Source of the DNA: an uncultured bacterium
Lineage (GTDB): Bacteria > Patescibacteriota > Gracilibacteria > UBA1369 > PNNO01
DNA: 32,000 bases
Reading direction: 5' to 3'
Assembly: GCA_963704705.1 (NCBI GenBank)
Contig: OY969931.1
Coordinates: 570,001-602,000 of the forward strand
The position numbers and the translations under genes are program-made. The first letter of the stretch is position 1; every line of letters starts with the position of its first letter. The notes under the pieces were generated by a model. The model was not told the origin of the DNA and made no database searches. It saw only the letters and a list, made by a program, of their open reading frames with translations. This document shows positions 9,242-30,886 of this stretch, in pieces.

Positions 9242-9245
9242 TAAA

Positions 9246-9274: not shown

Positions 9275-9283
9275 GAATCCTGT

Positions 9284-10039: not shown

Positions 10040-10083
10040 ATTCATTTTAAATTAGACCAAAAACCTTCCCAGTCAGCGCAGGT

Positions 10084-11689: not shown

Positions 11690-11708
11690 CAATATAACCC
11701 ATTTAATT

Positions 11709-13187
11709 ATGAAAGCTATTACATTAGCCAGGGTCTCAGATAAGGAACAAGAAGACAGAGATTCCTTACCTGCACAAGCTGATAACTTTATTAAGTATTG
11801 TGATAGGCACGAATTAGTCATCATTAAACAATTTGAGCTTGTAGAGTCATCAACCCGTGGGAACAGAACAAAATTTAATGAAGTTATAGAATTCATTAAA
11901 AAACAACCAGAAACAGTGGCGCTCGTGGTCGATAGGGTCGACAGGCTCCAAAGAGGATTCAAAGAGACTGTAATATTTGATGAATTGATGCAAAAAGGTA
12001 AAGTCGTACTCCATTTTATCAGGGAAAATTTAATAATTAGTGAAAATTCCAAAGGTCCTGATATTATAAGATGGGATTATGCTGTAATGGCAGCTAAAAC
12101 ATACATTCTTCAATTGCGTGATAATGTTAACTCTACAAAACAATTCAAATTATCGAGAGGGGAGTGTGTAACTCAAGCTCCAACGGGGTATTTAAATGTT
12201 ACTGACCCTGCTACAGAAAGAAACACTGTTGTTATAGATAAAGATCGTGCGCCATTTGTTAAAAAGACATTTGAACTTTATTCAACAGGATTGTATTCAT
12301 ATGAAAGCCTTGCTGTAAAACTTGCTGAAGAAGGTTTTACTAATAAGAGAGGTAATTCAATATCAAAAAACTCTATTGGTTTGATTCTTCAAAATAAGTT
12401 TTATTATGGAATTATCGTACATAAGGCAGGTAATAATACCGAATATCCCCATAATTACCCCAAAATTATTACTAAAGGACTTTATGATGATTGTATGGAA
12501 GTTGCAAAAGCACGACAAAAAACACCGACTAAATACATATTAAAACCTTATGCTTTTAGAGGCTTAATAAGATGTGCTCATTGTGGTTGTACGATTTCAT
12601 TTGAAACACATAAAGGTAAATATGTTTATAGTCGTTGTAACAAATCAAAAGGGAATTGCCCTGCAGGATATGTACGTGAAGAAATTTTGTTGTCACAAGT
12701 ATCAGAACTGCTAAAAAAGTTAGCAATTCCTAATGATGTGCTAGTAGATTTAAAGCTTAGATTGCAGAAGTCTAGTGAAGCTGAAATTCAATATCATAAA
12801 CACTCTATCGCAACTTTAAGACGTGAATATGATCAAATTCAACAGAAGTTGCATAACTTACTTGATTTATGTATTGCTGGGAGTATTACTAAGAGTCAAT
12901 ATGACGAAAAAGCTAGTGAACTGAAACAAATACAATACAACATTGATATGAAATTAAAAGAACACACAAAGGCAGATGAAGAGTTTGGAATTACGGTTTC
13001 TTATCTTATGGAACTCGCATCTAAAGCATATAAGTTGTTTGAAAGTTCGAAAGTAGAACAAAAACATAGAATTTTAAAATTATTACTTTCGAAAATTACT
13101 TTAGAGGGTGAAAAGCTTTATTTTAAAGTAAAAAGTCCCTTCGAGGCTATAATAAATGCTAAAGAACGTTGTTTTTGGGGTGAGTGA
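11709..13187 (+). CDS. large serine recombinase (integrase)
   Basis: The N-terminal resolvase domain has the catalytic-Ser motif ITLARVSDKEQ (S10) and VVDRVDRLQR. There is a recombinase domain, a zinc ribbon CAHCGC...SRCNKSKGNCP and a C-terminal coiled coil. The last 12 nt overlap tRNA-His on the opposite strand. Confidence 0.9.
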   Translation: MKAITLARVSDKEQEDRDSLPAQADNFIKYCDRHELVIIKQFELVESSTRGNRTKFNEVIEFIKKQPETVALVVDRVDRLQRGFKETVIFDELMQKGKVVLHFIRENLIISENSKGPDIIRWDYAVMAAKTYILQLRDNVNSTKQFKLSRGECVTQAPTGYLNVTDPATERNTVVIDKDRAPFVKKTFELYSTGLYSYESLAVKLAEEGFTNKRGNSISKNSIGLILQNKFYYGIIVHKAGNNTEYPHNYPKIITKGLYDDCMEVAKARQKTPTKYILKPYAFRGLIRCAHCGCTISFETHKGKYVYSRCNKSKGNCPAGYVREEILLSQVSELLKKLAIPNDVLVDLKLRLQKSSEAEIQYHKHSIATLRREYDQIQQKLHNLLDLCIAGSITKSQYDEKASELKQIQYNIDMKLKEHTKADEEFGITVSYLMELASKAYKLFESSKVEQKHRILKLLLSKITLEGEKLYFKVKSPFEAIINAKERCFWGE

Positions 13188-13253
13188 TGGGGCTCGAACC
13201 CACGACCCTCGGGACCACAACCCGATGCTCTAACCAACTGAGCTACACTCACC
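13176..13253 (-). tRNA. tRNA-His (anticodon GTG) with encoded G-1 and CCA
   Basis: The minus strand folds as a cloverleaf. G-1, then acceptor GTGAGTG/CACTCAC. D arm GCTC-AGTTGGTTA-GAGC. Anticodon arm TCGGG-TTGTGGT-CCCGA. Variable loop GGGTC. T arm GTGGG-TTCGAGC-CCCAT. Discriminator C, then CCA. Confidence 0.9.
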
Positions 13254-13608: not shown

Positions 13609-13647
13609 CAAAAAAAACACCCCCCGCTTGGGGGAGTGTTTCTTTTT
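13609..13647. terminator. bidirectional Rho-independent terminator
   Basis: The stem ACACCCCCC-GCTT-GGGGGAGTGT is flanked by an A8 run on the left and TTCTTTTT on the right. On the minus strand it gives a stem followed by T8, 75 nt after the metallopeptidase stop. Confidence 0.8.
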
Positions 13648-13722: not shown

Positions 13723-14607
13723 TTAAAGTGTAGCTATTTTCCTGCCTTCAGAGCGCAGGAACGTCTCGTAATCGTAATTAAGGAGAGTTGAATCGTAGTT
13801 TCTAACTTGTTTATCACCTTCGGTATAATGATCGTAATTGAACTCCTGACCGTTAAACACAAAATATTTCATGTAAATGTATTTTCTCCTTAAAGTTTTA
13901 TCGTACTGGGCCATATCTTTGAACTGCTGACCATGTAAAACATAATAGTTGTACGTTTCAGCAAAGTCTTCAAATGGATCTGTCATTGCATAACCTGTCA
14001 CAAAATTCGTTTTATCCGAACCTTCTTTTAAAGTTGATTCGTTCTGCCAGCTTATCCTGTAAAATCTTAATGATCGGTCATTTTCATAAACAGGAATGTT
14101 GCCGTCCATAAATTCACTTTTACCGGTCAGTATATCGCCGGTTTCCAAACCCGTATCAACTATATGTCCCATTTCGTGGACAAGTACTGAAACAAGTTCT
14201 CTATCGGTTACATCTGAACAACGTAATATAATGGTAGATCCTCCGCCAAGCCCTCGGCGTCCTTCAGCAAAATATAAAGTAAGGTGCTGAAGATGCTCTC
14301 GGTGTTCTTCTGGTAACGATGTTAACGTCTGATACACGAGAGCCTTGCAATGATTCAAAGAACTGGTTGTACTTCGATCTTCTGAACTGTATGAAGATCC
14401 GGGATAAAGCCTTAAACCGAGCGAATCCAACTGACTCGCATATTGATCCTCAATCGAAGCAGCATGACTAGTATACTCATTTGCATTATTTCCATCAACA
14501 CTTTCTTTAAAATCATATTGATTAAATGCTGATATATTTTGAAAATTGATGGCAAAGAACAAGAATAGTGCGCAAATCCGTATGTAATAAGATATTTTTC
14601 GTCCCAT
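13723..14607 (-). CDS. secreted zinc metallopeptidase (HEMGH ... EDFAE)
   Basis: N-terminal signal-like helix ICALFLFFAINFQNISA. HExxH motif in VLVHEMGHIVD and a downstream DPFEDFAETY that could supply the third ligand (gluzincin-like layout). Confidence 0.75.
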   Translation of the reverse strand: MGRKISYYIRICALFLFFAINFQNISAFNQYDFKESVDGNNANEYTSHAASIEDQYASQLDSLGLRLYPGSSYSSEDRSTTSSLNHCKALVYQTLTSLPEEHREHLQHLTLYFAEGRRGLGGGSTIILRCSDVTDRELVSVLVHEMGHIVDTGLETGDILTGKSEFMDGNIPVYENDRSLRFYRISWQNESTLKEGSDKTNFVTGYAMTDPFEDFAETYNYYVLHGQQFKDMAQYDKTLRRKYIYMKYFVFNGQEFNYDHYTEGDKQVRNYDSTLLNYDYETFLRSEGRKIATL

Positions 14608-14635: not shown

Positions 14636-14664
14636 ATCATATCAAGATATTGACATAATGTCAA
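14636..14664 (-). promoter_or_regulatory. sigma70-like promoter for the metallopeptidase gene (TTGACA-17-TATGAT) with a palindrome over the -35
   Basis: The minus strand has TTGACA (14664-14659), 17 nt, then TATGAT (14641-14636). The -35 lies inside the 15-nt palindrome TTGACATAATGTCAA (14650-14664). Confidence 0.5.
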
Positions 14665-14685: not shown

Positions 14686-17565
14686 TTATTTTGCCTGGTA
14701 AGAAGCGATTTCTTTGTTTGTGGAATTCGTTTTAGAAGGGTCGGTAAGGTAATCTAAAAGTACTTTTTCATATTGAATTAAAACATTTGAGTCAAATTGT
14801 GAAGAATTTGCATTAAAATTCCCAATAGCTCCTGTAGTTTTATTTATTTTAAATAAGACAATAACTTTATCATATAATACGCTATCAATATTTTTGATTG
14901 TTTTTAAAGCCTCCAAATCACCATAACAGGCCTGAATCAATGCTGTGCCAACATCTGATGTTAATTGTTTTTGTAAATAATCTTTGTTTTTAAAATTGCT
15001 AATTGCATTTTGAGCATCAACTACAGCATAAGTTCGTAATCTAACCTTATCAGCAATATCGAATTTATATTTTATTATTGGCAATGAACCTGAACTCTGT
15101 TTTAATGCATCGCGCATTTCAGATGTTGTAAATTTATGAGAAGCCAGATATCTAACAAGACCTGCCTTGCTCATGCCTGAATTAATGAATTTCAAACTAT
15201 AAAATTCCAGTATTTTATCTATCAAATCTGTTTGAGATTTTTTAAGTCCGAAATTATTCAAGAAGCTTTCATAAGCGCCTGAATAAGGTTTTTCTTGAAC
15301 GCCAACTTTAGTTCTTCCTACTTTAATTTCTCTTTGACCTTTTTTAGTTGTAACAAGCGAAATAAAATCTGATTTAGTTAATCTGTCACCGGATTTCATT
15401 GGTTTTTCACTCATTTGCTCAATCATATCGCCTTCCGGCCATTCTTTGCCTGATCTTAATTTATATTCGACTGAACCCGGTAGAGCCATTCTCAAAAACA
15501 TCACATAATGTAATGGTTTATTTTTACCAGTAACAAATCGCTGGCTTCCAAAATTAAAAGTATTTGAAGGAGCCATAAACGTTCCGTGAACCGGCTGAAT
15601 AAATTCATGAAGCCTGTCTTTAATTGAAGCATATTTCGGATCTTTTCTGAGTTCTCTTAAAGCCTGTTCATAAGAATTTTGGATAGCTGCTATTTTTGCC
15701 TGTTCAGAACCAGTGAAAGTTGATGCATCAACAGTTACTCTTGAACTCATAAACATTATATTTGTTGAAGTATTTGTCCATTGATGAGTTGCTTTTCTTG
15801 GATTTTTAGAATATCTGTGTTCATAAAGTTTCATATAGTCCCCGGTGTATGCTCCAAATCTATTTTCGTTTATAAAATTTGATAAAGGTTTTGTTTCAGG
15901 CATTATGCTTGATGATATTCTTTTAATATGATTATCTTTGATCTTTTCTTCAGGGTATTTACCTGGATTATTAGCTTGTTCTTTCCAGTCATAAGGATGA
16001 CCAGTTAGCATCCACCACTTCTTTGTTTGTTTTTTATCGTGATCTTCCCATTTAGTTTCAATTTCTCTTGCGAATATCAGTTCAACTTTACCGTCTTTAC
16101 CAAATTTCCATGCAAGTTCCTGATTCATTAGGATTGCGGTAATAATCATTCCATAACTAGGCTCAACAAATTTCTTTCCTTTATTTTTCGCTTCCATTTT
16201 CGCTTCATTAATAGAACGCATGACATCAGCCATGCTGCTGTTTGAAGCTTTAAGTTTTCTATCAACCAATCTTAACGAAACGTACATATCGTGTTTGCTC
16301 ATTTCATTTTCAGCAACTCCGCCAACAGGTAATTCCTTCATGTTATCCGGTATCGGATGGGTGTCGTATCGTTCTTTTTGCTGCAAATAAAGCTTTGCAA
16401 GATATGCAAATTTGTAATCTCCCATATAACCGATTGAACTTGAAAGTAGTTCAGCTTCATGTTTATTGCAATTGAAAGATTCTTTTAATAAATCTCTCTT
16501 CCCTGATCTGTCTTCTACATGAGAATTAAACCAGTCTGAAGCTTTTTTGCCTGTAAATGCTTTTGTTGTTGTATTAATAGCTAAATATCCGATACCAACC
16601 ATTCCCGCTTTTTTAAGGATGTCACGTAGTTTTGTAACTTCTTCATTATTTGAATTCAAAAACCATGCAGCGCCTATTAAAGTAGTTGCGATTGCAATTG
16701 CACGTTCTTTACCATCCATTCCGGCAAAATTTTCTCTTATACCCTGGATTTTTGTTGCGATCCATTTTTCAGCGCTTTTTGCGTATTCAACGGGTTGTGA
16801 GAATATTGTTTCTTTATTTTTTTGTACCAATTCAACTGTTCTGACACGTTTTTCCATTGTAGTTCTATATAAATGGTACTCCTTATAACCTTTATCAATT
16901 TTTGAACGAAGTAGGGGAGTAAGCGCAGTTTCTTTAATTATTGTTGATCTTTTAATTTTTTCATCAAGTGTAGATTCACTCGCGCTGAAAATATCATTTA
17001 GATAATCATCTATGATTTTTTGTTCAAGTTTAGCTTTGTTTGTTTTTCTGTAATCACTTATATATTGGAATACTTTTTGCGCCCTTGCTTTAAAATCCGG
17101 ATCATTTGCAATACTTTGATGAACAATATCAGGATTTTTTAAATTTTGTTCAAATTCAGCCTGAGTTAGAGCTGAAAAAAGCGTTTCATATTTCGGCGCT
17201 CCAACATTAAGTGCTAATTGAAGGTCACCTGCTTTTCTTTCCAACTGAGTAAATAAAAGTTTGTTCTGCTGATTGCTCTGAACATCGGTTTTAGCTTGTT
17301 CATATGAATATTGCGATATTGCAGATGTTTTAAGATCAGCTTCAAGTTTCTGCATACTCTCAAGAAATTTCTTTGCATTTGCCGGGATTTTATCCGGACT
17401 TTTTCTTAATGGTTGAATAAGATCAACGTATTTCTTATCCTTGAAATCTTCAACAGTTTTAATATCAGGATAAGTTTCACGAAAAGTCTGCGTAGATCTA
17501 ACAATATCCCTGCTTTCCACAGATGCTCTTGGACTGGTTGTTGGTGAGGTTCTTCCTCCTGCCAT
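14686..17565 (-). CDS. large hypothetical membrane protein (959 aa), last gene of the giant operon
   Basis: ATG start and TAA stop. Two central hydrophobic helices (AIAIATTLIGAAWFL and MVGIGYLAINTTT). No signal peptide and no domain recognised. Confidence 0.75.
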   Translation of the reverse strand: MAGGRTSPTTSPRASVESRDIVRSTQTFRETYPDIKTVEDFKDKKYVDLIQPLRKSPDKIPANAKKFLESMQKLEADLKTSAISQYSYEQAKTDVQSNQQNKLLFTQLERKAGDLQLALNVGAPKYETLFSALTQAEFEQNLKNPDIVHQSIANDPDFKARAQKVFQYISDYRKTNKAKLEQKIIDDYLNDIFSASESTLDEKIKRSTIIKETALTPLLRSKIDKGYKEYHLYRTTMEKRVRTVELVQKNKETIFSQPVEYAKSAEKWIATKIQGIRENFAGMDGKERAIAIATTLIGAAWFLNSNNEEVTKLRDILKKAGMVGIGYLAINTTTKAFTGKKASDWFNSHVEDRSGKRDLLKESFNCNKHEAELLSSSIGYMGDYKFAYLAKLYLQQKERYDTHPIPDNMKELPVGGVAENEMSKHDMYVSLRLVDRKLKASNSSMADVMRSINEAKMEAKNKGKKFVEPSYGMIITAILMNQELAWKFGKDGKVELIFAREIETKWEDHDKKQTKKWWMLTGHPYDWKEQANNPGKYPEEKIKDNHIKRISSSIMPETKPLSNFINENRFGAYTGDYMKLYEHRYSKNPRKATHQWTNTSTNIMFMSSRVTVDASTFTGSEQAKIAAIQNSYEQALRELRKDPKYASIKDRLHEFIQPVHGTFMAPSNTFNFGSQRFVTGKNKPLHYVMFLRMALPGSVEYKLRSGKEWPEGDMIEQMSEKPMKSGDRLTKSDFISLVTTKKGQREIKVGRTKVGVQEKPYSGAYESFLNNFGLKKSQTDLIDKILEFYSLKFINSGMSKAGLVRYLASHKFTTSEMRDALKQSSGSLPIIKYKFDIADKVRLRTYAVVDAQNAISNFKNKDYLQKQLTSDVGTALIQACYGDLEALKTIKNIDSVLYDKVIVLFKINKTTGAIGNFNANSSQFDSNVLIQYEKVLLDYLTDPSKTNSTNKEIASYQAK

Positions 17566-17624
17566 GTTAGTTTTTGTTTAATTTATCTTTATATTATACC
17601 CTAAAATTAGTATTTTTTGAAGGG

Positions 17625-17798
17625 CTAATCAGTTAAAGTGTCTTCTTCAATCTCCTGAAGTGCATTAATTAAAATACCAAAGCATTCACTCTCTTCTTTT
17701 TGAATTTGCTCTTCTAGCTCTTTTCGCTTAGCAATAAGCTTGTCGAGCTCATTCATGGTTGATTTGATTTGTGTAATTATTTCTTCTTTTTTTGACAT
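17625..17798 (-). CDS. unlisted 57-aa coiled-coil ORF (MSKKEEIITQIKSTMNELDKLIAKRKELEEQIQKEESECFGILINALQEIEEDTLTD)
   Basis: It falls below the ORF-track size cutoff. Its ATG (17798-17796) directly follows the TAA of the 775-aa gene (17801-17799), reading TAAATG. It fills an otherwise empty 233-nt gap. Confidence 0.5.
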   Translation of the reverse strand: MSKKEEIITQIKSTMNELDKLIAKRKELEEQIQKEESECFGILINALQEIEEDTLTD

Positions 17799-20126
17799 TT
17801 AAGGCAGGTCGTTAATAGCAGATTGTAGTTCGATCATTATTTTATTCAGATCAGTATAATGTTTGTTGAATTCTTTTTCGTATCCATTTTTTACTGCATA
17901 TTGATAATTTTGCTGGCTGAATATAATTAAAATGATATTTTTATAGGCATCTAAATCTTGCTGTAATAAATCTTTTGAAGCTCTATATTTTTTTATATCA
18001 ATTTTTAAAGCTTTTAATAATTTTTTTAGTTTTTTAACCTTTTCATTAAGACTCCTTAATGTAGTAACAACTTGTTCACGTTGATCTCTAAAAAGTAATT
18101 TTTTTACCCTATCACGTTCAGTAATGGCTCTTTCAGGTGCAACTGCTCCAGCAAATCCTTCTGCCGGAGGAGGAGTCGGAGGTTCATCACCGCCGCCCGG
18201 AGGAGCGGGAGGAGTAGGAGGAGGAGTCGGAGGTTCATCACCGCCACCCGGAGGGGTGGGAGTAGTAGGAGGAGGAGTCGGAGGTTCATCACCGCCACCC
18301 GGAGGGGTGGGAGGAGTAGGAGGAGGAGTCGGAGGTTCATCACCGCCGCCCGGAGGAGTAGGAGGAGGAGTCGGAGGTTCATCACCGCCACCCGGAGGGG
18401 TGGGAGGAGTAGGAGGAGGAGTCGGAGGTTCATCACCGCCCTTGTTTGCACCTAATACATATATTTCTGCATTTCCACCCTCAGAAGTTGTTTCACTTGT
18501 ATTCCCTTGTGAGGAACTTGTAATTTTTCCTGTTTCAGCAGTGCCGCCAGCACCGCCTTCAGTTGTGATAGCGCCGGTTTCAGCAGTACCGCCTTCGCCT
18601 CCTGCACCACCTTTAATATCACTAATATTTATACCTTCTGTTTTGCCACCTTCAGCAGTACCACCTGCACCACCTTTAACATCACTTATATTTACTCCTT
18701 CTGTTTTCCCACCTTCGCCCGTAGAAGTAATAGCGCCGGTCTCAGCAGTTCCGCCTTCACCACCTGCACCACCTTTAACATCACTTATATTTACTCCTTC
18801 TGTTTTCCCACCTTCGCCCGTAGAAGTAATAGCGCCTGTCTCAGCTGTACCACCTTCACCACCGGCACCACCTTGTCCACCTGCAGATGTATTTGAGATC
18901 TGACCCGTTTCAGCAGCGCCACCTTTAATATCGCTAATATTTACGCCTTCTGTTTTGCCACCCATACCACCTTTTATGTCACTAACACTAATCGTTGAAC
19001 CTTCACTTTTACCGCCCATCCCGCCTTTTACATCACTAACACTAATTGTTGAACCTTCACTTTTACCGCCCATACCGCCTTTTACATCGGTAACAGTAGC
19101 GCCTTCACTTTTACCACCCATACCGCCTTTTACATCACTTACTGTTGCACCTTCGGATCTTGAACTTACGGTTCCGGTTTCAGCTTTACCGCCGGCTCCG
19201 CCTTCTGAAGTAGATTTAACATCGCCTGTTTGAGCACTTGAATCTGCATTTATTGTACCTGTTTCAGCAGCACCACCTTTACCCCCTTCAGCTTTTACAT
19301 CACCGGTTTTTTGAGTTATATCACTAACTGATGCCCCACGGCTATCACCACCTTCTGCTTTAGCAGATCCACCATAAGCATTTACATTTACTGTTGTTGA
19401 TCCTTTTACTTGTCCCATTAAATTCATCAAATTTTCATCTACGATAACAGCTTTGCGGGGACTCCCACCTTCTTCTTTCTTATCTTTCTTTTTAGATTTT
19501 TCTACTTTTTTCTCAGGCTTTTTTTCTTTTTTTCCACCAATAATAGGAATATCTCCACTTTCTTCACCTTCTTCTTTTCCACCTCTTTTATCTGTGATTT
19601 TGATTGGTTTAGGTACTTCAACAGGTTTCTCCTCTTTTATTTCAGGCATATTAACAGCTCTGTTATCTGATGCACCTCCATATTTTCCTGATTCATAAGT
19701 ACCTTTAAAATTTTTACCAATATCTCTACCTTTTCCAGCTCTTTCAACTTTTATATTTTCTTCAGCTTGTCGTTCTCTATCAGGATTAAATTCAGGTTCT
19801 CCTGCAATTTGTTCTGTTCTTGCTTGTTCATCTCTTTTTTGAGGTTCTTCAGTTGGTTCTGCATATCTGATTTCATCAGTTCTTTCTCTATTTATTTCAT
19901 CAGTTCTAAATCTTCGTTTATCAGTTGTTTTATCAACTTTTTCTTTAACCTCCTTTTTTATTTCTTCAGCTTCAGGAAGCATAGCGGCTCTTTTCTCAGT
20001 TTTTTTAAAGCCTTTTTCTGCAGCAGCTTTTTCCTTTTCTTCCTCTTCTTTGGGATCAACTGCAAAATTTATGAATTTTGAATATTTCCAGGATAAATTT
20101 TGGAAATGTTTAAATAATTTTTTCAT
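17799..20126 (-). CDS. highly repetitive, low-complexity protein (775 aa): K/E-rich N-terminus, Gly-rich repeats, Pro-rich repeats, C-terminal coiled coil
   Basis: ATG start and TAA stop. Repeats of the type SDVKGGMGGKSEG and GGAGGEGGTAETGAITSTGEGGKTEGVNISDVK, then six GGGDEPPTPPPTPPTPP units. No signal peptide. Confidence 0.8.
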   Translation of the reverse strand: MKKLFKHFQNLSWKYSKFINFAVDPKEEEEKEKAAAEKGFKKTEKRAAMLPEAEEIKKEVKEKVDKTTDKRRFRTDEINRERTDEIRYAEPTEEPQKRDEQARTEQIAGEPEFNPDRERQAEENIKVERAGKGRDIGKNFKGTYESGKYGGASDNRAVNMPEIKEEKPVEVPKPIKITDKRGGKEEGEESGDIPIIGGKKEKKPEKKVEKSKKKDKKEEGGSPRKAVIVDENLMNLMGQVKGSTTVNVNAYGGSAKAEGGDSRGASVSDITQKTGDVKAEGGKGGAAETGTINADSSAQTGDVKSTSEGGAGGKAETGTVSSRSEGATVSDVKGGMGGKSEGATVTDVKGGMGGKSEGSTISVSDVKGGMGGKSEGSTISVSDIKGGMGGKTEGVNISDIKGGAAETGQISNTSAGGQGGAGGEGGTAETGAITSTGEGGKTEGVNISDVKGGAGGEGGTAETGAITSTGEGGKTEGVNISDVKGGAGGTAEGGKTEGINISDIKGGAGGEGGTAETGAITTEGGAGGTAETGKITSSSQGNTSETTSEGGNAEIYVLGANKGGDEPPTPPPTPPTPPGGGDEPPTPPPTPPGGGDEPPTPPPTPPTPPGGGDEPPTPPPTTPTPPGGGDEPPTPPPTPPAPPGGGDEPPTPPPAEGFAGAVAPERAITERDRVKKLLFRDQREQVVTTLRSLNEKVKKLKKLLKALKIDIKKYRASKDLLQQDLDAYKNIILIIFSQQNYQYAVKNGYEKEFNKHYTDLNKIMIELQSAINDLP
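18169..18440. repeat. in-frame tandem repeat, six units of 51 nt (one of 42 nt), encoding GGGDEPPTPPPTPP(TPP)
   Basis: The unit anchor GGAGGAGTCGGAGGTTCATCACCGCC starts at 18169, 18220, 18271, 18322, 18364 and 18415. Confidence 0.95.
18455..19380. repeat. degenerate Gly-rich coding repeats, including two near-identical 99-nt units
   Basis: The units 18671-18769 and 18770-18868 share their first 67 nt exactly and differ at about 5 positions after that. Shorter 54-60-nt units encoding ...SDVKGGMGGKSEG... lie at about 18950-19150. Confidence 0.85.
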
Positions 20127-20146
20127 TTTTATATGTGTTATTTATA

Positions 20147-21142
20147 TTAGGTAGTATGATATGGCACAGGAGTAACCTCTTTTCTTTCATTTAGGAGTCC
20201 TGGTACACTTTCGTGGCCAAGATATTTTTCAAATAAAAATATCCATCTTTTTGATTTATATTTGATAATTTTTTCTTTTATTTTCTGAAGTTTAAGTTCA
20301 CAATCATTTATCCTTTCTGTAATTTTACTTCTTTCTTCCGAATGTTCCGGTGCGGTTTTATTAAAATCATTTAATCTTTTTATCTCAGCCTGTTTTGATT
20401 GTAATAATGCGCTTACCCGTCCGCCCCATTTTTGCTCGATTTTTCTTCTTTCTATTTGAAGTAATCTTCTTATTTCTGTAACTGTGTCATTATAAAATTT
20501 ATTGTCTTTATTCATTTCTGTTAAAAGACCTGTTCTATCTTTTACCATTTCAGAAATATCGCGTCTGGTTCGGCTGATTTCGCCTCTAAGCCTTTGCTCT
20601 TCAGCTTGATCTTCTTCTCCATGATATTCCATTTCAAGTTCCTCCAATCTTGCCCTGAATGCTTCTATCTCGCGGTTGATGGAATCCAATTCGCTATACA
20701 TATCCAACAAGCGATTTAATCTGTCTTCAAATTTTTTGTATCTTTTTCTGTAATTTGTTCTTAAAGTTAGTGCAAGGACAATATCACTAAACAATATTGG
20801 TCTATTTCTTCTGTCATATAAACTTGGATCAATCTCTGCCTCTATTTCCGTATAAAAATTACGCTCTCCATCATCAATCGCACTATCTGCTTCTTCAGCT
20901 ATTTTAGCTTTAACAGCTTGATAAAACTCACCTGCGGTTTTGCCCTGCTTCGCTGCTCTATCCAAAAATGTTTTAAAAGTAGCAAAGAATTGTCGTTCTT
21001 CAGGATTTGTTAATGGGCCTCTATCAGGTTCAGAAAAATATCCAAGGATATCTTCCTGCCACCTTGCCATTGCTGCAGCATCGGTGACTTTTTCGTCCCA
21101 CTCAATTTGGAATAGCTCTTTGTCTTCTGAATTTTCAGCCAT
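20147..21142 (-). CDS. hypothetical coiled-coil protein (331 aa)
   Basis: ATG start and TAA stop, 20 nt upstream of the 775-aa gene. The central heptad-like R/E/K-rich region suggests a coiled coil. Confidence 0.75.
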   Translation of the reverse strand: MAENSEDKELFQIEWDEKVTDAAAMARWQEDILGYFSEPDRGPLTNPEERQFFATFKTFLDRAAKQGKTAGEFYQAVKAKIAEEADSAIDDGERNFYTEIEAEIDPSLYDRRNRPILFSDIVLALTLRTNYRKRYKKFEDRLNRLLDMYSELDSINREIEAFRARLEELEMEYHGEEDQAEEQRLRGEISRTRRDISEMVKDRTGLLTEMNKDNKFYNDTVTEIRRLLQIERRKIEQKWGGRVSALLQSKQAEIKRLNDFNKTAPEHSEERSKITERINDCELKLQKIKEKIIKYKSKRWIFLFEKYLGHESVPGLLNERKEVTPVPYHTT

Positions 21143-21144
21143 AA

Positions 21145-21516
21145 TTATTTGTTATTTTGTTTTTGTTTTTTCTTTTCAAGAACCTCATCAAGTCTTTCCG
21201 CGTCATAAGTAAGTTCATCAACAAGGTCATTTATATTTTTCAACATAACTTCATTAAGTGCGGGAATTTCATCAACAATTGCATAAATGATCTCGTAATC
21301 ACTCATGTCAGGATTCGCAGTTCTGATCATTTCAAAAGTTTTGATATCATCGTCAGTCATAGCATGCATGATTGATAAAAGAATCCTGTTACCTAATGTT
21401 CTTAGAAGTTCTTTTTCAATTTTAGCTTTTATATCAGGCTCGGAGTCGTTTAGTTTAAGCTTTTCCATGACATGATCTATAAAAGCCTGATAAGTGAAGT
21501 TTTCTGATGTAAACAT
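21145..21516 (-). CDS. small acidic helical hypothetical protein (123 aa)
   Basis: ATG start and TAA stop, 2 nt from the next gene. No domain recognised. Confidence 0.7.
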   Translation of the reverse strand: MFTSENFTYQAFIDHVMEKLKLNDSEPDIKAKIEKELLRTLGNRILLSIMHAMTDDDIKTFEMIRTANPDMSDYEIIYAIVDEIPALNEVMLKNINDLVDELTYDAERLDEVLEKKKQKQNNK

Positions 21517-21539
21517 ATTTATTTTTGTTAATTTTTATT

Positions 21540-24323
21540 TTAAGCGGCGCGTTTGGCATAAGATTTTTCGATACTACTCTGAACCTTAGTATCTATTTCT
21601 CTGGCCGGCCATGTTAGAATGCTTCTTGCCAGACCCCAAACCGAACCAACAACATTACCCGGTAGTTTTGCAAATGCTTTCCAATCCATTTTTTCAGCTT
21701 CTTTTGCCTTATCGTATGTTTCACCTTTAAATAATTTCATGTAAGTTTTAAATGCCTTATATCCTCCGTAACCAACACCTGCCATTGCCCAGAATGGCCA
21801 TGTATGTGGTCCATATTTCAAAAAGCCTTTACCACCTGTTTTGGCTGCTCTTAACATACGAATTGATAAAGATCTGCGTCTTGCGTTTGCTCCAAGTCTT
21901 TCCAGTTCTTCTCTTTTTTCAAGTTTGGATAAATTACCTGGTAGTTGATCAACAGCTTCATTAAATGTTTTATTTTGTTCAGAAAATAACAACTGTCTTT
22001 TGTACAATGCATGATGAGCTTGCACGCCATTTTTAATTGCATTATCCATCTGAACACTTGATTCAGTGTCAGTTTCGAGTTTTTTCAACACGAGTTTTGC
22101 TCTGTCTGTATCAGGATTAATTGTTTCATCATCCTCAACTTCTTTTAAGAAATTTTCAGTTTGAATTTGGGATTCCAAAAGAGACAGTATGTGAATCATA
22201 TTTTCAATCATAGGTGCTTCTTCGGCCCTAACAGTATAAGTTTTGCCCGGAACAATACGTTTTCCCATCGGAGCAATAAGATTTTCAAGTTTTGTTAAAT
22301 CAATTGTTTTTCTACCTACTTTTCGTAATTTGTTAATTAATCCTTTATCTGTTGGAACTTCTATTCCCTTAATAAATTCAGCAAGTTTCATCTGCATTTC
22401 TCTTAGTTTTTGCGGTGAAACCTTGCCCATTCTTTGCATTGCTTTAATAAAATCAGATCTGGTTGAAAAAACAGTAATATCATGGAACAAAGCCAAATCC
22501 GGATCCGTATCAACAACATGCTCCAATACATCTTTTGCAGATAAAATCGGCAACCAGTCACTCGGTAAAATTGTGCCGGCTATATTTCGCATTCTTTGAA
22601 CAAGAGGGCTTGATTGATCCACAATTCTTTTATTTGTAGCTCCATAAATTTCCAAATGTCTCGTTTTTGTAATAATCATATTTGTCGCATATAAAGCCTT
22701 TTGAGGTAATCCGGTTTCTTCTGTTACACCTTTAAGCTTTAAATCACGTTCAATAAGTTTGTATAAAAGACCCCGCGAATCCATTTTCTCGGTCTTGCCC
22801 TGAGACTGTTGTGCTGCTTTTAATTCATTGTCTACATCTGCTTTTGTTGATTGAGCCATTTTTCGAAGTTCATCTAATGCGTTTTGTACGTTGAAATCTG
22901 AGTAATAATTATTAAATTCATCTAAAAATAAATTTATTTCAGTTGGTTGAGAAGGTTTATTTGTTAACATTGGATTAGTTAGTATATTTAACCCTCCAGT
23001 CCCTGTTACTGCTAAAATATTAGCTATTTGTGCATTATACGGAGTTGTACCTTGATATTTTCTTATAAATTCTTTTAAATTCCACACATTATTAATAATT
23101 TCCCTTTGTATTTCTCCTGCTTTTTGTTGAGCTTTTTGTATATCAACATTATATTTTTCAATTCTTGCCGAAATTTCAGGTGTTGGCGGTCTTCCCGAAA
23201 TAGCAGTTAATGCTGCAGTAATACGTGTTATAGTTTCATTTTCGGATATAAGCTCATTGTATTTAGTGCCGAATGAAGTAAGTACATCACTAATTGCAGT
23301 AAGATTATTTTTCCATTCTGCTTCCCTTTCTTTTAATTGATCTAATCTGTTTCCTCGCCCTGATATACTCCTTACAAATTCTCTTAAAGCAGGGCCTTCT
23401 TCTGCGTCATCAATTCCAGCTTCCAAATACGCAAGCATCGCTTTCGCTTCAAGAGAAGTATGAACATTTTCAAGTTGTTTTGGAGTTAGTATATCCTGGA
23501 GCATTTGTTCCATTGTATTGTTACGCACTCTTTCCTTTGCTTGTTTTTGTTGTTCAAGTAATTGTTGATACATGTTTGGATTTCCAGTACTTAAAGCCTC
23601 AATACTACCAAAACCCAAAGGAATAATATTTGCATTTACCCAATTTGTGAAAGCCTCATCCCGCAATGCCAAAGTCATCGCCTCATTATCAAGCCATGTT
23701 TTTAATCTTTGGGGATTGAATCTGTCGGCACTTACTTTTGCTTCTTCTTCATGAATTACACGTTTTAATTCTGAATGTCTGAATTTTAGATGTATTAATT
23801 CGCGTGCTCCTGCTTGTCTTGAGAAATTAGCCCAAACATTAGCTCTTTCAAGTTTTTTCTTGATTGTAATAAAATCATCAGTATTCCATCTAACCACTAC
23901 GGTTTCGTGGGTTGGAACACCATTTGGTCCAACCGCAACATCAAATTCATTAACTGGATTTGCAGCACCCATATTAATTGCATTTCCTCTTGAATCAACA
24001 AATGCACCGCCACCAATTGCACCGATTGCTTGTATTTGCCAATTAAGATCTCTGAGCATCCCTAGGTAATTTCTACCGCGTACGTGTTCATAGGTAAAAA
24101 AATCACGCGCTACCTCGCGCTCAGCCCATTCCCGTCTGAATAAACCAAATCCCAAATAATTCGCTATTCGATATCTCCATGTTTGCGGACCGCCGCCTCT
24201 TCTTCTTACTTCTTCATCAACTATGTGTTTGTAGTATTGAGGCGCATAATGCCTAATGTAATCCAGTCTGCTGCGAACTCTTCTATCAATAATTTCTGTT
24301 CTATTCAAAGGCCCGTTCATCAT
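21540..24323 (-). CDS. large hypothetical protein (927 aa or longer), first gene of the giant operon
   Basis: The first ATG is at 24323, but the frame stays open to 24596 with coding-like sequence. C-terminal hydrophobic or amphipathic segment WPFWAMAGVGYGGY. No domain recognised. Confidence 0.75.
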   Translation of the reverse strand: MMNGPLNRTEIIDRRVRSRLDYIRHYAPQYYKHIVDEEVRRRGGGPQTWRYRIANYLGFGLFRREWAEREVARDFFTYEHVRGRNYLGMLRDLNWQIQAIGAIGGGAFVDSRGNAINMGAANPVNEFDVAVGPNGVPTHETVVVRWNTDDFITIKKKLERANVWANFSRQAGARELIHLKFRHSELKRVIHEEEAKVSADRFNPQRLKTWLDNEAMTLALRDEAFTNWVNANIIPLGFGSIEALSTGNPNMYQQLLEQQKQAKERVRNNTMEQMLQDILTPKQLENVHTSLEAKAMLAYLEAGIDDAEEGPALREFVRSISGRGNRLDQLKEREAEWKNNLTAISDVLTSFGTKYNELISENETITRITAALTAISGRPPTPEISARIEKYNVDIQKAQQKAGEIQREIINNVWNLKEFIRKYQGTTPYNAQIANILAVTGTGGLNILTNPMLTNKPSQPTEINLFLDEFNNYYSDFNVQNALDELRKMAQSTKADVDNELKAAQQSQGKTEKMDSRGLLYKLIERDLKLKGVTEETGLPQKALYATNMIITKTRHLEIYGATNKRIVDQSSPLVQRMRNIAGTILPSDWLPILSAKDVLEHVVDTDPDLALFHDITVFSTRSDFIKAMQRMGKVSPQKLREMQMKLAEFIKGIEVPTDKGLINKLRKVGRKTIDLTKLENLIAPMGKRIVPGKTYTVRAEEAPMIENMIHILSLLESQIQTENFLKEVEDDETINPDTDRAKLVLKKLETDTESSVQMDNAIKNGVQAHHALYKRQLLFSEQNKTFNEAVDQLPGNLSKLEKREELERLGANARRRSLSIRMLRAAKTGGKGFLKYGPHTWPFWAMAGVGYGGYKAFKTYMKLFKGETYDKAKEAEKMDWKAFAKLPGNVVGSVWGLARSILTWPAREIDTKVQSSIEKSYAKRAA

Positions 24324-24665
24324 CTGATTTCTAACGCCGTAAATAACTTCTTCCGGATTATTGCCCGCGTAAGGTATTTGATCCGGATTGTATCTTTGAT
24401 CAAATCTGTTAATTATACTTTCAGCCTCAAGCTGGCCTGTTTCTGTTGGAGTAGGCTGTACCCAATCATCTTCAGGCTCAGTAGTTATATAAACAAATTT
24501 TGACTCAAAAAGATTTGAATCAAAAAATTTGTTAAATTTGTTTTGTTTTAAATATTTTTTATTTATTTTTGTTTTTCTTAAATTTATCCTTATATTTTAC
24601 CAAAATTTGCGTAAAATTACAAGTTAAGGTAGCATAATGCGCGTTAGTTTTTTAATCTTATATTC

Positions 24666-25910
24666 ATGGATGTTAATGTAAAAAAATTACCAAAGGCAGA
24701 AGTTGAGTTAGTTGTTGAGCTAAATCAAGCGGAATTTCAAAAAGATATTGATGATGCTGCCAAAGAATTATCAAAAGAAGTTAAAATTTCAGGTTTTAGA
24801 CCGGGAAATGTTCCATTCGATGTGCTTTCTCAGCATGTAGGCAAAGAAATGATTATCAATCATGCGCTTGATCACGCTATTCCGAGAATTCTTACTGAAG
24901 TTATAAAAAATGAAAAACTTGAGATTATTGCAAGGCCAAAAGTTGAAGTTTTAAGTACTGATCCTGTTAAAATTAAAGCAATAGCTCCAGTTTATCCTGA
25001 GGTTAATATTGATGGTTACGATAAAGTTAAGATTAAAGCAAAAGAAGTAAAATTGGGCGATAAAGAAGTTAATGAGGCAATTGAAAGAGTAAAAAAGCAA
25101 TTTGTTGAATGGAAGGAAGTTTTAAGAGCAATTGAAAAAGGGGATAAAGTGGAAATTGATTTTGAAGGTTTTGATGAAGGCGGAGCACCACTTGAAGGAA
25201 CCGAAAGTAAAAATCACCCTTTGATCATTGGTGAAAAAATGATGGTTGCTGGTTTTGAAGATAATTTAATCGGCATGAAAACAGGTGAAGAAAAAGATTT
25301 TGAGCTGACTTTTCCAAAGGATTATCACAAAAAGAGTTTTCAGAATAAGAAAGTTAAGTTTCATGTAAAAGTTAATAAAGTTGAAAAAGCCGAGTATCCT
25401 GAATTAAATGAAGAATTTATTGAAAAAATTACAGGAACTAAAAAACCAGTTGATGAATTCAAAAAAGACGTTGAAAGAGATTTAAAAGAATACAAAGAGC
25501 AGGAAGCAAGAAAGGATCAGGAAGAAGAACTTCTGAAAAAGTTTCTCGAAGTTTCTAAAGTTGAATTTTCAGATATTCTAGTGGATGAAGAAGTTGATTA
25601 TATGCTTAGAGACATGCGGCAAAGTATGCAGCAAAGGGGAGTGAAGTTTGAAGATTATTTAACTCACATGAAAAAAACTGAAGATGATTTAAGAGCAGAA
25701 ATGAAGAAAGAAGCAGAAAAAAGAATTACATTAAGATTTGCTCTGCACGAAATTATGAATAAGGAAAAAATCGAAGTACCTGAAGAAAAGATAAAAGAGC
25801 AAATGGAGAAAATTCCTAATCTGCCAAAAGAGCATGAATCTCAGGCTAGAGGCCAAATTACGAATTCTCTCAAAATAGAACAGTTATTTGACAGATTTAT
25901 TGTCAAATAA
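24666..25910 (+). CDS. tig: trigger factor
   Basis: The N-terminus MDVNVKKLPKAEVELVVEL...ISGFRPGNVP carries the ribosome-binding GFRxGxxP signature. A central FKBP-like region (GDKVEIDFEGF...) is followed by a long helical C-terminus. Confidence 0.9.
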   Translation: MDVNVKKLPKAEVELVVELNQAEFQKDIDDAAKELSKEVKISGFRPGNVPFDVLSQHVGKEMIINHALDHAIPRILTEVIKNEKLEIIARPKVEVLSTDPVKIKAIAPVYPEVNIDGYDKVKIKAKEVKLGDKEVNEAIERVKKQFVEWKEVLRAIEKGDKVEIDFEGFDEGGAPLEGTESKNHPLIIGEKMMVAGFEDNLIGMKTGEEKDFELTFPKDYHKKSFQNKKVKFHVKVNKVEKAEYPELNEEFIEKITGTKKPVDEFKKDVERDLKEYKEQEARKDQEEELLKKFLEVSKVEFSDILVDEEVDYMLRDMRQSMQQRGVKFEDYLTHMKKTEDDLRAEMKKEAEKRITLRFALHEIMNKEKIEVPEEKIKEQMEKIPNLPKEHESQARGQITNSLKIEQLFDRFIVK

Positions 25911-25940: not shown

Positions 25941-26189
25941 ATGAGAAATTTACGCACATTCTTTTTATCAGGTTCAATAGTACTTTTAATAATAGTACTC
26001 ATTGTTGCCTTTCAGAATATTCAGGCACAGTGTAATTTTATTACAATCTTTTTCTTTTCGATTGAAGCTAATACATCTCCCACTATAATGATTCTGGTTG
26101 TATCTTTGATTGGAATAATCACAGGAGGATTCTTAATGGGATTGATTATGAGCTTCCTTGTTAAAGATGAAGAAGAAGACTCATTTTAG
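25941..26189 (+). CDS. small two-TM membrane protein (LapA/DUF1049-like, tentative)
   Basis: 82 aa, two hydrophobic helices and an acidic tail. Confidence 0.55.
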   Translation: MRNLRTFFLSGSIVLLIIVLIVAFQNIQAQCNFITIFFFSIEANTSPTIMILVVSLIGIITGGFLMGLIMSFLVKDEEEDSF

Positions 26190-26361: not shown

Positions 26362-26922
26362 ATGTTAAAACATTTATTTACTTCGAACACTCGAATTAAA
26401 TTACTTACGCTATTCTTACTTAACCCCGAGGAAGAGTACTTCATCAGGGAATTAACGCGTAAGCTCAACGAGCAAATTAATTCGGTAAGACGCGAGTTGG
26501 ATAACTTAAAAAAACTCGGGCTTTTAAAAAGCAAAGTTAAAAATAGAAAAAAGTATTATATAGTGAATAAAAATTTTGTAGCTTTTCATGATTTAAGAAA
26601 TATCATTATAAAAGCAATGAGCGGCAAGGATGATCTTGTTAAAAAAATTACAAAATTAGGTGAGGTTGAATTTTTGGCACTTCTTGGAATCTTTGTTGAT
26701 AAAGCTTCTCCTGTAGATTTATTAATTGTAGGAAATATTGATAAACAAAAAGTTCAGGATTTATTAAACAGCGAAATCGAAACCGAAAAACCTATAAGAT
26801 TTAGTATTTTAAGCCGTGATGATTTCCTTTATAGAATAAAGTGTAAAGATCAATTCATTCAGGGTATTTTGTATGATCCGGATAATATTATTGCCGTGAA
26901 TAAATTAGAGAAGAATATGTAA
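26362..26922 (+). CDS. winged-helix (ArsR-like) transcriptional regulator with an uncharacterised C-terminal domain
   Basis: The N-terminus TRIKLLTLFLLNPEEEYFIRELTRKLNEQINSVRRELDNLKKLGLL has the wHTH layout. Confidence 0.65.
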   Translation: MLKHLFTSNTRIKLLTLFLLNPEEEYFIRELTRKLNEQINSVRRELDNLKKLGLLKSKVKNRKKYYIVNKNFVAFHDLRNIIIKAMSGKDDLVKKITKLGEVEFLALLGIFVDKASPVDLLIVGNIDKQKVQDLLNSEIETEKPIRFSILSRDDFLYRIKCKDQFIQGILYDPDNIIAVNKLEKNM

Positions 26923-27531: not shown

Positions 27532-28143
27532 ATGAGATCCCATCCTTTGGAATTAAAGTTTGCAAAGGAGGGGATTTTTGATATAGCTGGATTAGATGAG
27601 GCAGGCAGAGGACCTTGGGCCGGGCCTTTAGTGGCTTCGGCTGTTATTTTCCCAAATAAATTCAGGATTGCGGGTATTAATGATTCAAAACAATTAACTG
27701 GGCTTCGACGTATTGTTTTGTTTGCTCAAATTATAAAAAAATGTGATGTTGGAGTCGGAATTGTGTCATCAAAATATATAGACAAACATGGATTGACAAA
27801 AGCTTTAAATATGGCATACCAAAAAGCGATCAAGAGGTTGTCTAGACAGCCAAAATATGTTCTTGTAGATGGTATTGGTAAGTATGATTTTGATATTGAT
27901 TATGAAACAATAAAAAAGGGAGATACAAAAGTTCGTGTTATTGCTGCAGCTTCGATTGTTGCAAAAGTTGTGCGAGACACAATTATGGATTCATATTCAT
28001 TAAAATATCCCAAATATGGATTTGATAAACATAAAGGTTATGGAACAAGACAACATCATCAAAATTTGCTAAAGTACGGTGTGTGCGAATTGCACAGGCA
28101 AAGTTTTGCACCAATAAAAGCTATTCAAAATGAATCAAAATAG
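27532..28143 (+). CDS. rnhB: ribonuclease HII
   Basis: IAGLDEAGRGPWAGPLVASAV (active-site DE), INDSKQL, and AASIVAKVVRD followed by GYG. Confidence 0.9.
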   Translation: MRSHPLELKFAKEGIFDIAGLDEAGRGPWAGPLVASAVIFPNKFRIAGINDSKQLTGLRRIVLFAQIIKKCDVGVGIVSSKYIDKHGLTKALNMAYQKAIKRLSRQPKYVLVDGIGKYDFDIDYETIKKGDTKVRVIAAASIVAKVVRDTIMDSYSLKYPKYGFDKHKGYGTRQHHQNLLKYGVCELHRQSFAPIKAIQNESK

Positions 28144-30861: not shown

Positions 30862-30886
30862 AACACGAACGAGAGGAGAAGAGACC

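Follow-up and report, generated by a model that had tools for sequence, protein, structure and literature searches.

A conserved locus of giant orphan proteins with an exchangeable middle cassette in the Peregrinibacteria-Gracilibacteria branch of the Candidate Phyla Radiation

The 32,000-nt stretch of DNA analysed here (the window; contig OY969931.1 of assembly GCA_963704705.1, positions 570,001 to 602,000) comes from an uncultured bacterium of the Patescibacteriota. On its minus strand, positions 14686-24323 hold six co-directional open reading frames (ORFs), which in the order of transcription encode proteins of 927, 123, 331, 775, 57 and 959 aa and are called g1 to g6. The gaps between them are 23, 2, 20, 0 and 59 nt, in agreement with the initial annotation, made from the sequence alone, which had described a six-gene operon of giant, domain-less proteins of these sizes with spacing of 0-59 nt. 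The locus takes up ~10 kb of a 1.37-Mb genome. Upstream lies tig, divergent from g1, and beyond it two small genes are followed by those for L19, RNase HII and a CsaB-type pyruvyl transferase. On the 3' side g6 is followed by g7, whose 294-aa product carries an N-terminal hydrophobic segment and a HEMGH motif, and then by tRNA-His, the 3' end of which is overlapped by a gene for a large serine recombinase (coordinates in Table 1). Comparison with related loci indicates that g1, g2, g6 and g7 form a conserved core and that g3-g5 make up an exchangeable cassette.

Selection was estimated against the closest relative found, L010, in which the gene order is collinear with that of the window and the nucleotide identity is 88%. 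The ratio of nonsynonymous to synonymous substitution rates (dN/dS, NG86 method) is 0.16 for g1, 0.11 for g2, 0.07 (0.066) for g6 and 0.25 for g7, with 0.06 for tig. These values argue that g1, g2 and g6 are real, selected genes and not chance ORFs, and that the purifying selection on the core is comparable to that on tig. The order tig (divergent), g1, g2, variable middle, g6, Mx-type peptidase was found in L001-L010, L018 and L019, counting loci whose contig covers the position; these are Peregrinibacteria loci and one Gracilibacteria locus (L009). Where contigs reach far enough, they show the same flanking genes, for L19, RNase HII and pyruvyl transferase. No locus with a contig long enough to cover the positions of both g1 and g6 has one without the other, and g7 comes after g6 in 10/10 related loci whose contig runs past g6. 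In L006 the order is g1-g2-g6-peptidase with no intervening gene, and these four genes are therefore taken as the minimal core. On the Gracilibacteria contig the genes are laid out alike and encode proteins of 1038, 117, 118, 555 and 287 aa; its 117-aa protein aligns with g2, and its 555-aa protein is a short g6 in which the hydrophobic-pair region described below is matched nearly motif for motif. The junction between tig and g1 is not inviolable, as four genes (289, 337, 152 and 89 aa; no Pfam match) are inserted there in L018 (positions 4017-6870 of that locus), whereas the order from g1 to the peptidase is. The fixed six-gene machine of the initial annotation thus has to be redrawn: its three middle genes are replaceable, and its minimal core takes in the peptidase, a member of the conserved block, besides g1, g2 and g6.

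Close homologs of g1 number 7 among 5.8 billion proteins, and an exhaustive profile search of 1.84 billion representatives gave 52, the distant tier consisting of proteins of similar length that include one Gracilibacteria cluster. All 21 members of the g6 family are full length (860-1107 aa), and the g2 family counts 42, with g2 present in all loci, that of Gracilibacteria included. The named sources of relatives are Peregrinibacteria, Patescibacteria and Gracilibacteria only. Exact peptide patterns of the long form of g6 found 7 loci in 185,579 species genomes, all in Peregrinibacteria, Peribacteria or unclassified Patescibacteria/bacterium records, in a scan that is blind to divergent g6 relatives. 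A tblastn search of phage and plasmid collections gave no match to the block, IMG/VR held no g6 relative, and a BFVD fold search with g6 gave no match (best E=0.2). The conserved order and flank, together with this absence from phage, plasmid, IMG/VR and BFVD data, indicate that the block is old, has been passed on vertically in the Peregrinibacteria-Gracilibacteria branch within the Candidate Phyla Radiation (CPR) and is not island cargo. The description of the operon as conserved and lineage-specific has therefore held: gene order is kept in every related locus, purifying selection is present, the pattern scan stays within the lineage, and the proteins fall into no known unrelated family.

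The middle of the block has a different history. The segment g3-g5 has no nucleotide similarity to L010, while both of its flanks are 88% identical. The breakpoints lie immediately past the stop codon of g2 and at that of the last cassette gene; L010 preserves the 59 nt 5' of g6, including a TATAAT box, and the TAGGGTATAATAT stretch of the promoter-like site located there is identical, right after the breakpoint. On the opposite side the cassette abuts a tract of ~1.3 kb, covering the 3' third of g1 and g2, with a sliding identity to L010 of 0.93-1.00 (0.86 in one 100-nt window) against mostly 0.63-0.93 elsewhere in the region compared. The g2 protein is 99% identical to its L010 counterpart, and the synonymous substitution rate (dS) of g2 is 0.029 against 0.5-0.8 in neighbouring genes, an anomaly (dS 0.03) explained by the near-identical tract. 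The tract is the footprint of a recent homologous recombination that ended exactly at the cassette boundary. The cassette itself appears to be swapped by recombination with breakpoints precisely between genes, and this even where two genomes share 88% identity.

The content of the middle module varies accordingly from locus to locus. Genes g3, g4 and g5 are present in the window, L001, L003 and L008; L018 has g3 and g4 without g5; L020 and L021 have g3 and g4, with g5 also in L021, and the contig of L020 stops inside g4. A single coiled-coil protein of 1038-1102 aa accompanied by g5 takes this place in L004 and L007, one 589-aa coiled-coil protein in L010, and small proteins of 175, 254 and 45 aa in L019. 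At least two cassette types can be distinguished, with zero to three genes between g2 and g6. The g3 protein has full-length homologs in L001, L003, L008 and L018 (25-30% identity), by which it appears to be a genuine family, and a metagenome scan with it returned two further short loci. Conservation is highest in a peptide at its C-terminus, YKSKxPIFLFERxxGIKSIPxL; for the g3 of the window the pattern is YKSKxWIFLFEKYLGxxSVPxL, within the peptide YKSKRWIFLFEKYLGHESVPGLL. Proteins at the g4 position share the N-terminal motif [KRN]YSK[FLN] only (in the window, within LSWKYSKFINFAV), and their bodies are Gly-rich with (GGGDEPPTPPPTPP)n repeats in the window, PA-rich in L001, collagen-like (GKDGIDG) in L003 and coiled coil elsewhere. 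The extremely repetitive protein singled out in the initial annotation is g4, with tandem units of 51/93, 99 and 54 nt. PT-rich linkers also occur among the cassette proteins. Homologs of g5 (45-64 aa, 36-73% identity) were found in seven loci; loci that lack the cassette, or have one like that of L010, do not have g5.

Table 1. Features of the locus and of its surroundings in the window
Feature	Coordinates	Strand	Description
g1	21540-24593	-	orphan giant, ~1008-1017 aa; ATG-delimited ORF 21540-24323, 927 aa
C-terminal hydrophobic pair of g1	21609-21812	-	aromatic/Gly-rich; GPHTWPFWAMAGVGYGGY ... LPGNVVGSVWGLARSILTW; KYxP and Gly positions conserved in alignment
g2	21145-21516	-	123 aa, helical, DUF5663 (PF18908 match); conserved core component
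g3	20147-21142	-	331-aa coiled-coil protein; heptad segment at residues 117-182
g4	17799-20126	-	775-aa fibrous repeat protein; KYSKF N-terminus, K/E-rich region, Gly-rich and (GGGDEPPTPPPTPP)n repeats, C-terminal coiled coil
g4 tandem repeats	18166-18440, 18660-18874, 18946-19154	-	
g5	17625-17798	-	57-aa helical protein; start abuts g4 stop codon
g6	14686-17565	-	959-aa orphan giant; N-terminal helical domain, long helix, hydrophobic pair, C-terminal alpha/beta region
Hydrophobic pair of g6	16555-16704	-	RAIAIATTLIGAAWFL - NSNNEEVTKLRDILKK - AGMVGIGYLAINTTTKAF
g7	13723-14607	-	294-aa secreted/anchored putative zinc metallopeptidase; conserved HEMGH at residue 144, N-terminal hydrophobic segment
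Replaceable cassette	17631-21144	-	g3 + g4 + g5
Recombination footprint	21226-22525	-	93-100% identity to L010; 3' third of g1 and g2; abuts cassette
Promoter-like site for g7	14636-14664	-	TTGACA-17-TATGAT with upstream TG
Promoter-like site, g5-g6 gap	17593-17621	-	TTCAAA-17-TATAAT; TATAAT box conserved in L010
Intrinsic-terminator-like site 3' of g7	13620-13635	-	G+C-rich hairpin and T-run; TCCCCCAAGCGGGGGG then TGTTTTTTTT
tig	24666-25910		divergent from g1
82-aa gene	25941-26189		tig-L19 interval
186-aa gene	26362-26922		tig-L19 interval; weak HVO_A0114-like match
CsaB-type pyruvyl transferase	28130-29185		
High-GC block	29668-32000		58-64% GC
tRNA-His	13176-13252	-	
Putative island	~6289-13252		
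Serine recombinase	11709-13187	+	overlaps tRNA-His 3' end
251-aa ORF	9284-10039		within putative island
AAA_15/AbiEii-type ATPase	7349-9178		
YaaC-like protein	6289-7389		
SLH-domain protein	2196-3797		533 aa
Wzy_C protein	1007-2149		O-antigen ligase-like

The first core gene is longer than its ATG-delimited ORF. The frame 5' of this ATG is open to 24596, and the extension 24324-24596 contains no ATG, GTG or TTG. The orthologs of g1 carry ~85 additional N-terminal residues, and the 91 extension codons match the N-terminus of one of them, P0004, at 66% identity (E=1e-52). Between the window and L010 the extension has a dN/dS (omega) of 0.079 at a dS of 0.83 (86 codons compared), from which it follows that it is translated. 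The codon at the start position is ATG in L004, AGG in the window and TAG in L010; an in-frame ATA (24566-24564) is common to the three and is the sole shared candidate start. Because the ancestral ATG has been lost and no ATG, GTG or TTG precedes the annotated one, initiation must be non-canonical, and the true start is placed within 24593-24564. The upper end of 24323 given to the block in the initial annotation therefore falls ~250 nt short. A start codon lost while translation is retained makes g1 a small, clean candidate case of non-canonical initiation in the CPR.

An AlphaFold2 (AF2) model of g1 built on the family alignment has a predicted local distance difference test score (pLDDT) of 72 and a pTM of 0.63; residues 100-910 are confident and mostly helical, with a long helical hairpin, and the middle of the protein includes a coiled-coil-like heptad segment. 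The coiled-coil character attributed to the operon was confirmed in this segment, in g3 and in the C-terminus of g4, and in the long helices of the AF2 model. Near its C-terminus g1 has an aromatic and Gly-rich hydrophobic pair, including the WPFWAMAG segment, in which only a few positions are invariant. The 19-residue Kyte-Doolittle maxima of this pair are 0.81-1.09, and up to 1.38 in some orthologs, and the pLDDT there is below 50; the pair is a possible membrane-association element. A peptide of g1 that fits the Walker A pattern, AQQSQGKT, is not conserved in orthologs and was rejected as a P-loop.

The AF2 model of g6, obtained in the same way, also has a pLDDT of 72 and is confident at residues 23-247 (helical) and 360-959 (alpha/beta), the latter region containing many invariant charged and aromatic residues. 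Its hydrophobic pair with the polar loop is the most conserved stretch of the protein, even in Gracilibacteria. In four diverged orthologs, 15 columns are invariant (W301, F302, L303, N304, E308, K312, R314, D315, K318, K319, G324, G326, N331, T332 and K335); in the alignment of 22 sequences, N304, K312, K319, N331 and K335 are invariant and F302, L303, E308, R314 and G326 are at least 90% conserved. The 19-residue Kyte-Doolittle maxima of the pair are 0.99 and 0.78, with pLDDT again below 50. The membrane segments of the initial annotation therefore stand as conserved pairs in g6 and g1, which are too weakly hydrophobic to be called transmembrane; the "transmembrane helices" of both proteins lie below the usual transmembrane hydropathy and are unproven. 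A paralogous relationship of g1 and g6 was ruled out (hhalign probability 1.3%).

Among g1-g6, only g2 matches a known family. It matches PF18908 (DUF5663) end to end (E=4.8e-5, 24.3 bits against a cut-off of 23.7, profile positions 2-83/84), and PF18908 is precomputed on its orthologs P0091, P0093, P0097 and others. The family has no known function, so that membership is uninformative on mechanism, and no mention of DUF5663 was found in the literature searched. The g7 protein aligns with Peptidase_Mx (PF15887) over ~40 residues around the HExxH motif that it shares with the Peptidase_Mx/Mx1 families (PF15887, PF15890), with a score slightly under the gathering cut-off (E=8.7e-6, 25.8 bits, cut-off 27); its orthologs carry weak precomputed Mx matches. 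It is 82% identical to its L004 counterpart, compared with ~55% for g1 and g6.

As to export, g7 has an N-terminal hydrophobic segment and none of g1-g6 does, as the initial annotation had stated for signal peptides. No signal peptide, lipobox or prepilin-like N-terminus was found in g1-g6 or in any ortholog examined. Cysteines are absent from g1, and g6 has two.

Both flanks named in the initial annotation, a divergent tig and a secreted metallopeptidase under its own promoter, were recovered; the site in front of g7 matches 11/12 consensus positions and is the best sigma-70-like site of the region. The same annotation had noted neither promoter nor terminator inside the block. The second part stands, as no terminator site comparable to the hairpin 3' of g7 was found on the minus strand between g1 and g7, and this hairpin probably marks the end of the transcription unit; the first does not, given the promoter-like site in the g5-g6 gap. 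In the 30 nt before the starts of g2, g3, g4 and g6 there is no recognisable Shine-Dalgarno sequence, and the leaders are A-rich, e.g., AAAAATAAAT-ATG and AAAAACTAAC-ATG. The stop codon of g4 directly abuts the start codon of g5 (TAA ATG), which suggests a coupled, Shine-Dalgarno-independent initiation of g5.

Family searches assign little else. With Pfam, NCBIfam, PHROGs and PADLOC, DUF5663 is the sole family on g1-g6, and the remaining matches are sub-threshold and of coiled-coil type; the claim that no domain is recognisable thus fails for g2 and holds for g1, g4 and g6 in these libraries. Pfam searches of 22 g6 and 19 g1 family members taken singly gave no recurrent family and no ClyA, Hbl or XaxA match, and nine distant relatives of g1 gave no match. 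Single-sequence searches of PDB sequences with g1 and g6 were negative. When profiles were used against 177,635 PDB sequences, the best match of g6 was MakB (6w1w, 6t8d; E=0.009, 17.4 bits), at its helical residues 193-303, and that of g1 was coiled-coil noise only. No significant sequence similarity places g6 or g1 in the ClyA/Mak/Smh families. Foldseek searches of the PDB with the AF2 models of g1 and g6 found nothing at E<0.05, with query TM-scores of at most 0.1; the best match of g6 was at E=0.83, and g1 matched SmhB only at E=1.9 (TM 0.18). The g1 protein matches T3SSipB (PF16535) at E=0.012 (16.4 bits, cut-off 31) over a 43-residue coiled-coil stretch, in 2/19 members; no type III secretion system (T3SS) genes occur in the window or related loci, and g1 does not qualify as a SipB/IpaB protein. 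The g3 protein has a match to alpha-xenorhabdolysin A at E=0.39 and weak matches of its coiled-coil region to SMC, JetC and LmuB (E=1.8e-5 to 2e-3), in PADLOC to JetC positions 277-454/1097 at E=1.8e-5 and to LmuB at E=2.9e-4, where g1, g4 and g6 have none below 0.01. It has no Walker A motif and no SMC head or hinge, and so is not assigned to SMC, JetC or LmuB. PHROG matches of g1-g6 are no better than E=0.0087, and the block is not assigned to phage-derived or defence systems. In the literature on large proteins in Peregrinibacteria and Gracilibacteria no description of the locus was found; the Peribacteria and Vampirococcus papers (PMC4736985, PMC8080830) describe other, signal-bearing giant or Cys-rich surface proteins. 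The g1/g6 core was rated as lying outside every known kind of system, the membership of g2 in DUF5663 being the only one found.

The surroundings of the block contain several genes related to the cell envelope. At the left end of the window a Wzy_C protein is followed by an SLH-domain protein, and these, together with the CsaB-type transferase, point to an anchoring system of SLH proteins and pyruvylated polymer in the organism. Between tig and L19 there are two small genes, and genes of the same sizes (79-84 and 172-200 aa) occupy this position in every relative, Gracilibacteria included. The right end of the window is a GC-rich block in a genome of ~33% GC; its first product, of 397 aa, starts with a signal peptide and has a C-terminus like that of outer-membrane proteins (...EIRARF), followed by a lipoprotein-like protein with nine Cys-rich DUF4215 repeats (E=4.5e-52), which runs off the window. 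An assembly chimera was ruled out here, as relatives, among them the Gracilibacteria locus, likewise have genes of 55-62% GC in this place; the anomaly in base composition is conserved. These genes probably correspond to the strain-variable Cys-rich surface proteins of Peribacteria (PMC4736985). Beyond tRNA-His, a serine recombinase, an AAA_15/AbiEii-type ATPase and a YaaC-like protein make up an island that is missing from L010, where homology with the window stops at the tRNA; the equivalent spot in L006 carries a serine recombinase and a type III restriction-modification system. The region looks like an integration hot spot with defence-like cargo. A 251-aa ORF in it has a sub-cut-off match to MACPF (perforin-like; E=0.027, ~30 residues) that is probably noise.

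Three groups of known systems invite comparison. The Mycoplasma terminal organelle (HMW1, HMW2, HMW3, P65, P41, P24) is built by lineage-specific, domain-poor operons in a host-attached bacterium with a reduced genome. Its proteins have very long coiled coils, acidic or Pro-rich repeats and small helical partners, carry no signal peptides and assemble in the cytoplasm at the membrane. However, no sequence relationship was found, no EAGR-box or other Mycoplasma family was found in Pfam, the organisms are unrelated, and the core here consists of two giant non-coiled-coil proteins and a peptidase, with a fibrous part that is dispensable in some genomes. Crescentin, FilP, Scy and SMC rods resemble g3, the C-terminus of g4 and the 589-1102-aa versions of relatives in being long heptad-repeat rods, but the rods here are swappable accessories and not the core, and no Walker A is conserved. 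The ClyA-family toxins (MakA/B/E, SmhABC, Nhe/Hbl) and SipB/IpaB would share with g1 and g6 long helices around a short hydrophobic hairpin, an all-helical build, the absence of Sec signals and a multi-component operon layout. They differ in that the proteins here are 3x larger, g6 has an additional alpha/beta region of 600 residues, Foldseek detects no significant similarity, and the locus belongs to the core genome, is under strong purifying selection and has no export system. The nearest analogues would thus be the Mycoplasma terminal organelle and coiled-coil-rich proteins in composition and logic, and ClyA-family and SipB-type hairpin proteins in local architecture.

The interpretation that we favour, tentatively and at somewhat less than an even chance, is a membrane-associated scaffold that is assembled in the cytoplasm and carries an exchangeable fibrous module, with a possible role in envelope architecture or host contact. 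The absence of signal peptides from every ortholog suggests that g1-g6 would be made and assembled in the cytoplasm. The proteins g1 and g6 would be tethered to the cytoplasmic membrane by their Gly- and aromatic-rich hydrophobic pairs, probably as hairpins or monotopic wedges, with g2 as a small adaptor. The conserved terminal peptides of the cassette proteins, at the C-terminus of g3 and the N-terminus of g4, may dock exchangeable fibres onto the g1/g6 platform, and the outcome would be a membrane-anchored scaffold bearing rods or fibres as a variable module. A function in the cell envelope, either in shaping it or in organising a site of contact or attachment with a host cell, is suggested by the envelope-related neighbours (CsaB-type transferase, SLH, DUF4215, peptidases) and by the turnover of the cassette. 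Several points weigh against this interpretation. No experiment or homology ties g1-g6 to membrane, filament or cell contact. The hydrophobic pairs are under standard transmembrane hydropathy in a region where AF2 is unconfident, and they could instead be helices buried in the core. In g6, the last 600 residues, modelled with confidence as alpha/beta and rich in invariant charges, could equally be an enzyme. Turnover of the cassette, PT linkers and collagen-like repeats would sooner be expected of exposed surface or phage-fibre proteins than of cytoplasmic ones and fit poorly where export signals are absent, and the adjacency of a peptidase with its own promoter is no proof of joint action. 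A bolder form of the scaffold proposal, which we consider unlikely as a whole, is a hitherto unrecognised apparatus of the clade in which hairpin-anchored g1/g6, both of orphan fold, would form the contact site and swappable fibres would tune host specificity through the docking peptides; in its extreme version the hairpins would insert into the host membrane and form a Sec-independent conduit for feeding or attachment.

The second debatable issue is whether a membrane is involved at all. The long coiled coils, the weak matches of g3 to the coiled coils of SMC, JetC and LmuB, the lack of signal peptides and of any segment at transmembrane hydropathy, and the position of the block amid housekeeping genes are also consistent with a purely cytoplasmic assembly, cytoskeletal or chromosome-organising, with the cassette providing filaments or rods, g1 and g6 acting as organisers in solution and the hydrophobic pairs being ordinary core helices. 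The mixture of Pro-rich, repeat and coiled-coil sequence resembles that of the HMW/P65-type proteins of Mycoplasma. We regard this possibility as doubtful. The cassette is absent in L006, so that the filament-like part is dispensable and g1, g2 and g6 are not; its wholesale swap between near-identical strains would be unusual for an internal cytoskeleton; and the SMC-type matches are limited to coiled-coil regions. The pair of g6, moreover, is its most conserved part even in Gracilibacteria, which suggests a specific role over generic packing.

Alternatively, g3-g5, and perhaps g1 and g6, might lie outside the cell as a surface fibril or adhesin that is exported by an unrecognised route and is under diversifying selection by hosts or phages. 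The exchange of the cassette between close relatives and the flanking recombination tract speak for this. The collagen-like G-x-y sequence, PT-rich linkers and Gly-rich repeats would suit such proteins, as would the neighbourhood related to envelope and S-layer, and large surface proteins that vary among strains are known from the lineage (PMC4736985). However, in none of the six proteins and in no ortholog examined does the sequence show a lipobox, a signal peptide or an N-terminus like that of prepilins, the block encodes no secretion ATPase or channel, and the known exported proteins of the lineage are Cys-rich (PMC4736985), in contrast to g1 and g6. On balance this route to the surface seems unlikely.

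Proteins of the ClyA/Mak/Smh and SipB/IpaB kinds have a hydrophobic helical hairpin that is tucked away among long helices while the protein is soluble and is inserted into a membrane later. It may be asked whether g1 and g6, and perhaps g3, are giant analogues of these alpha-helical pore formers or translocators, which would insert into the host membrane, with variable fibres setting host specificity and the metallopeptidase processing components or clearing the way. The MakB match lies directly upstream of the hydrophobic pair of g6, and the matches to T3SSipB in g1 and alpha-xenorhabdolysin A in g3 point in the same direction. So do the succession of long helices, a weakly hydrophobic Gly-rich hairpin of low AF2 confidence and further helices, and the absence of Sec signals, as in T3SS translocators and ClyA. 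Vampirococcus, of a sister clade, is a contact-dependent predator (PMC8080830), which also counts for this possibility. All of these matches, however, fall short of curated cut-offs, and the helical or coiled-coil regions that they cover readily give spurious similarity; Foldseek against a PDB that includes Mak and Smh structures gives no support; the proteins are ~3x the size of known alpha-helical pore-forming toxins; no export system is linked to the locus; and purifying selection at the level of tig together with a core-genome position fits a housekeeping function better than a toxin. We consider such a pore former decidedly unlikely.

That the block is cargo of a mobile element, prophage or defence island, or a set of adjacent genes without shared function, is very improbable and largely refuted: tRNA-His, the overlapping recombinase and the AAA_15 and YaaC-like genes are immediately downstream, L006 has a recombinase and restriction-modification genes at the same place and weak PHROG and PADLOC coiled-coil matches exist, but the island is separated from the block by the tRNA and missing in L010, where the operon is collinear, the neighbours tig, L19 and RNase HII are constant across Peregrinibacteria and the Gracilibacteria locus, no PHROG or PADLOC match is significant, phage, plasmid, IMG/VR and BFVD data gave no match, and g1 and g6 co-occur wherever a contig covers both.

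The initial annotation had proposed a membrane scaffold, a cytoskeletal assembly or a cell-cell interaction structure; this remains the most economical reading of the anatomy, as a proposal that the data neither establish nor overturn. Much of bacterial diversity belongs to the CPR, whose members are thought to be host-attached, and for roughly half of the genes of these bacteria no function can be assigned. Their genomes often contain conserved blocks of hypothetical genes, and to our knowledge attachment structures are known only for a few cultured Saccharibacteria. The core proteins described here appear to have been kept in one place since before the split of Peregrinibacteria and Gracilibacteria. 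The type of cassette offers a ready marker of strain-level variation. Even if the assembly is only an internal scaffold or an enzyme complex, g1 and g6 would still be a new pair of clade-defining protein families, and a conserved platform with a swappable fibre would be a concrete, testable candidate for a lineage-specific structure of the envelope or of host contact.

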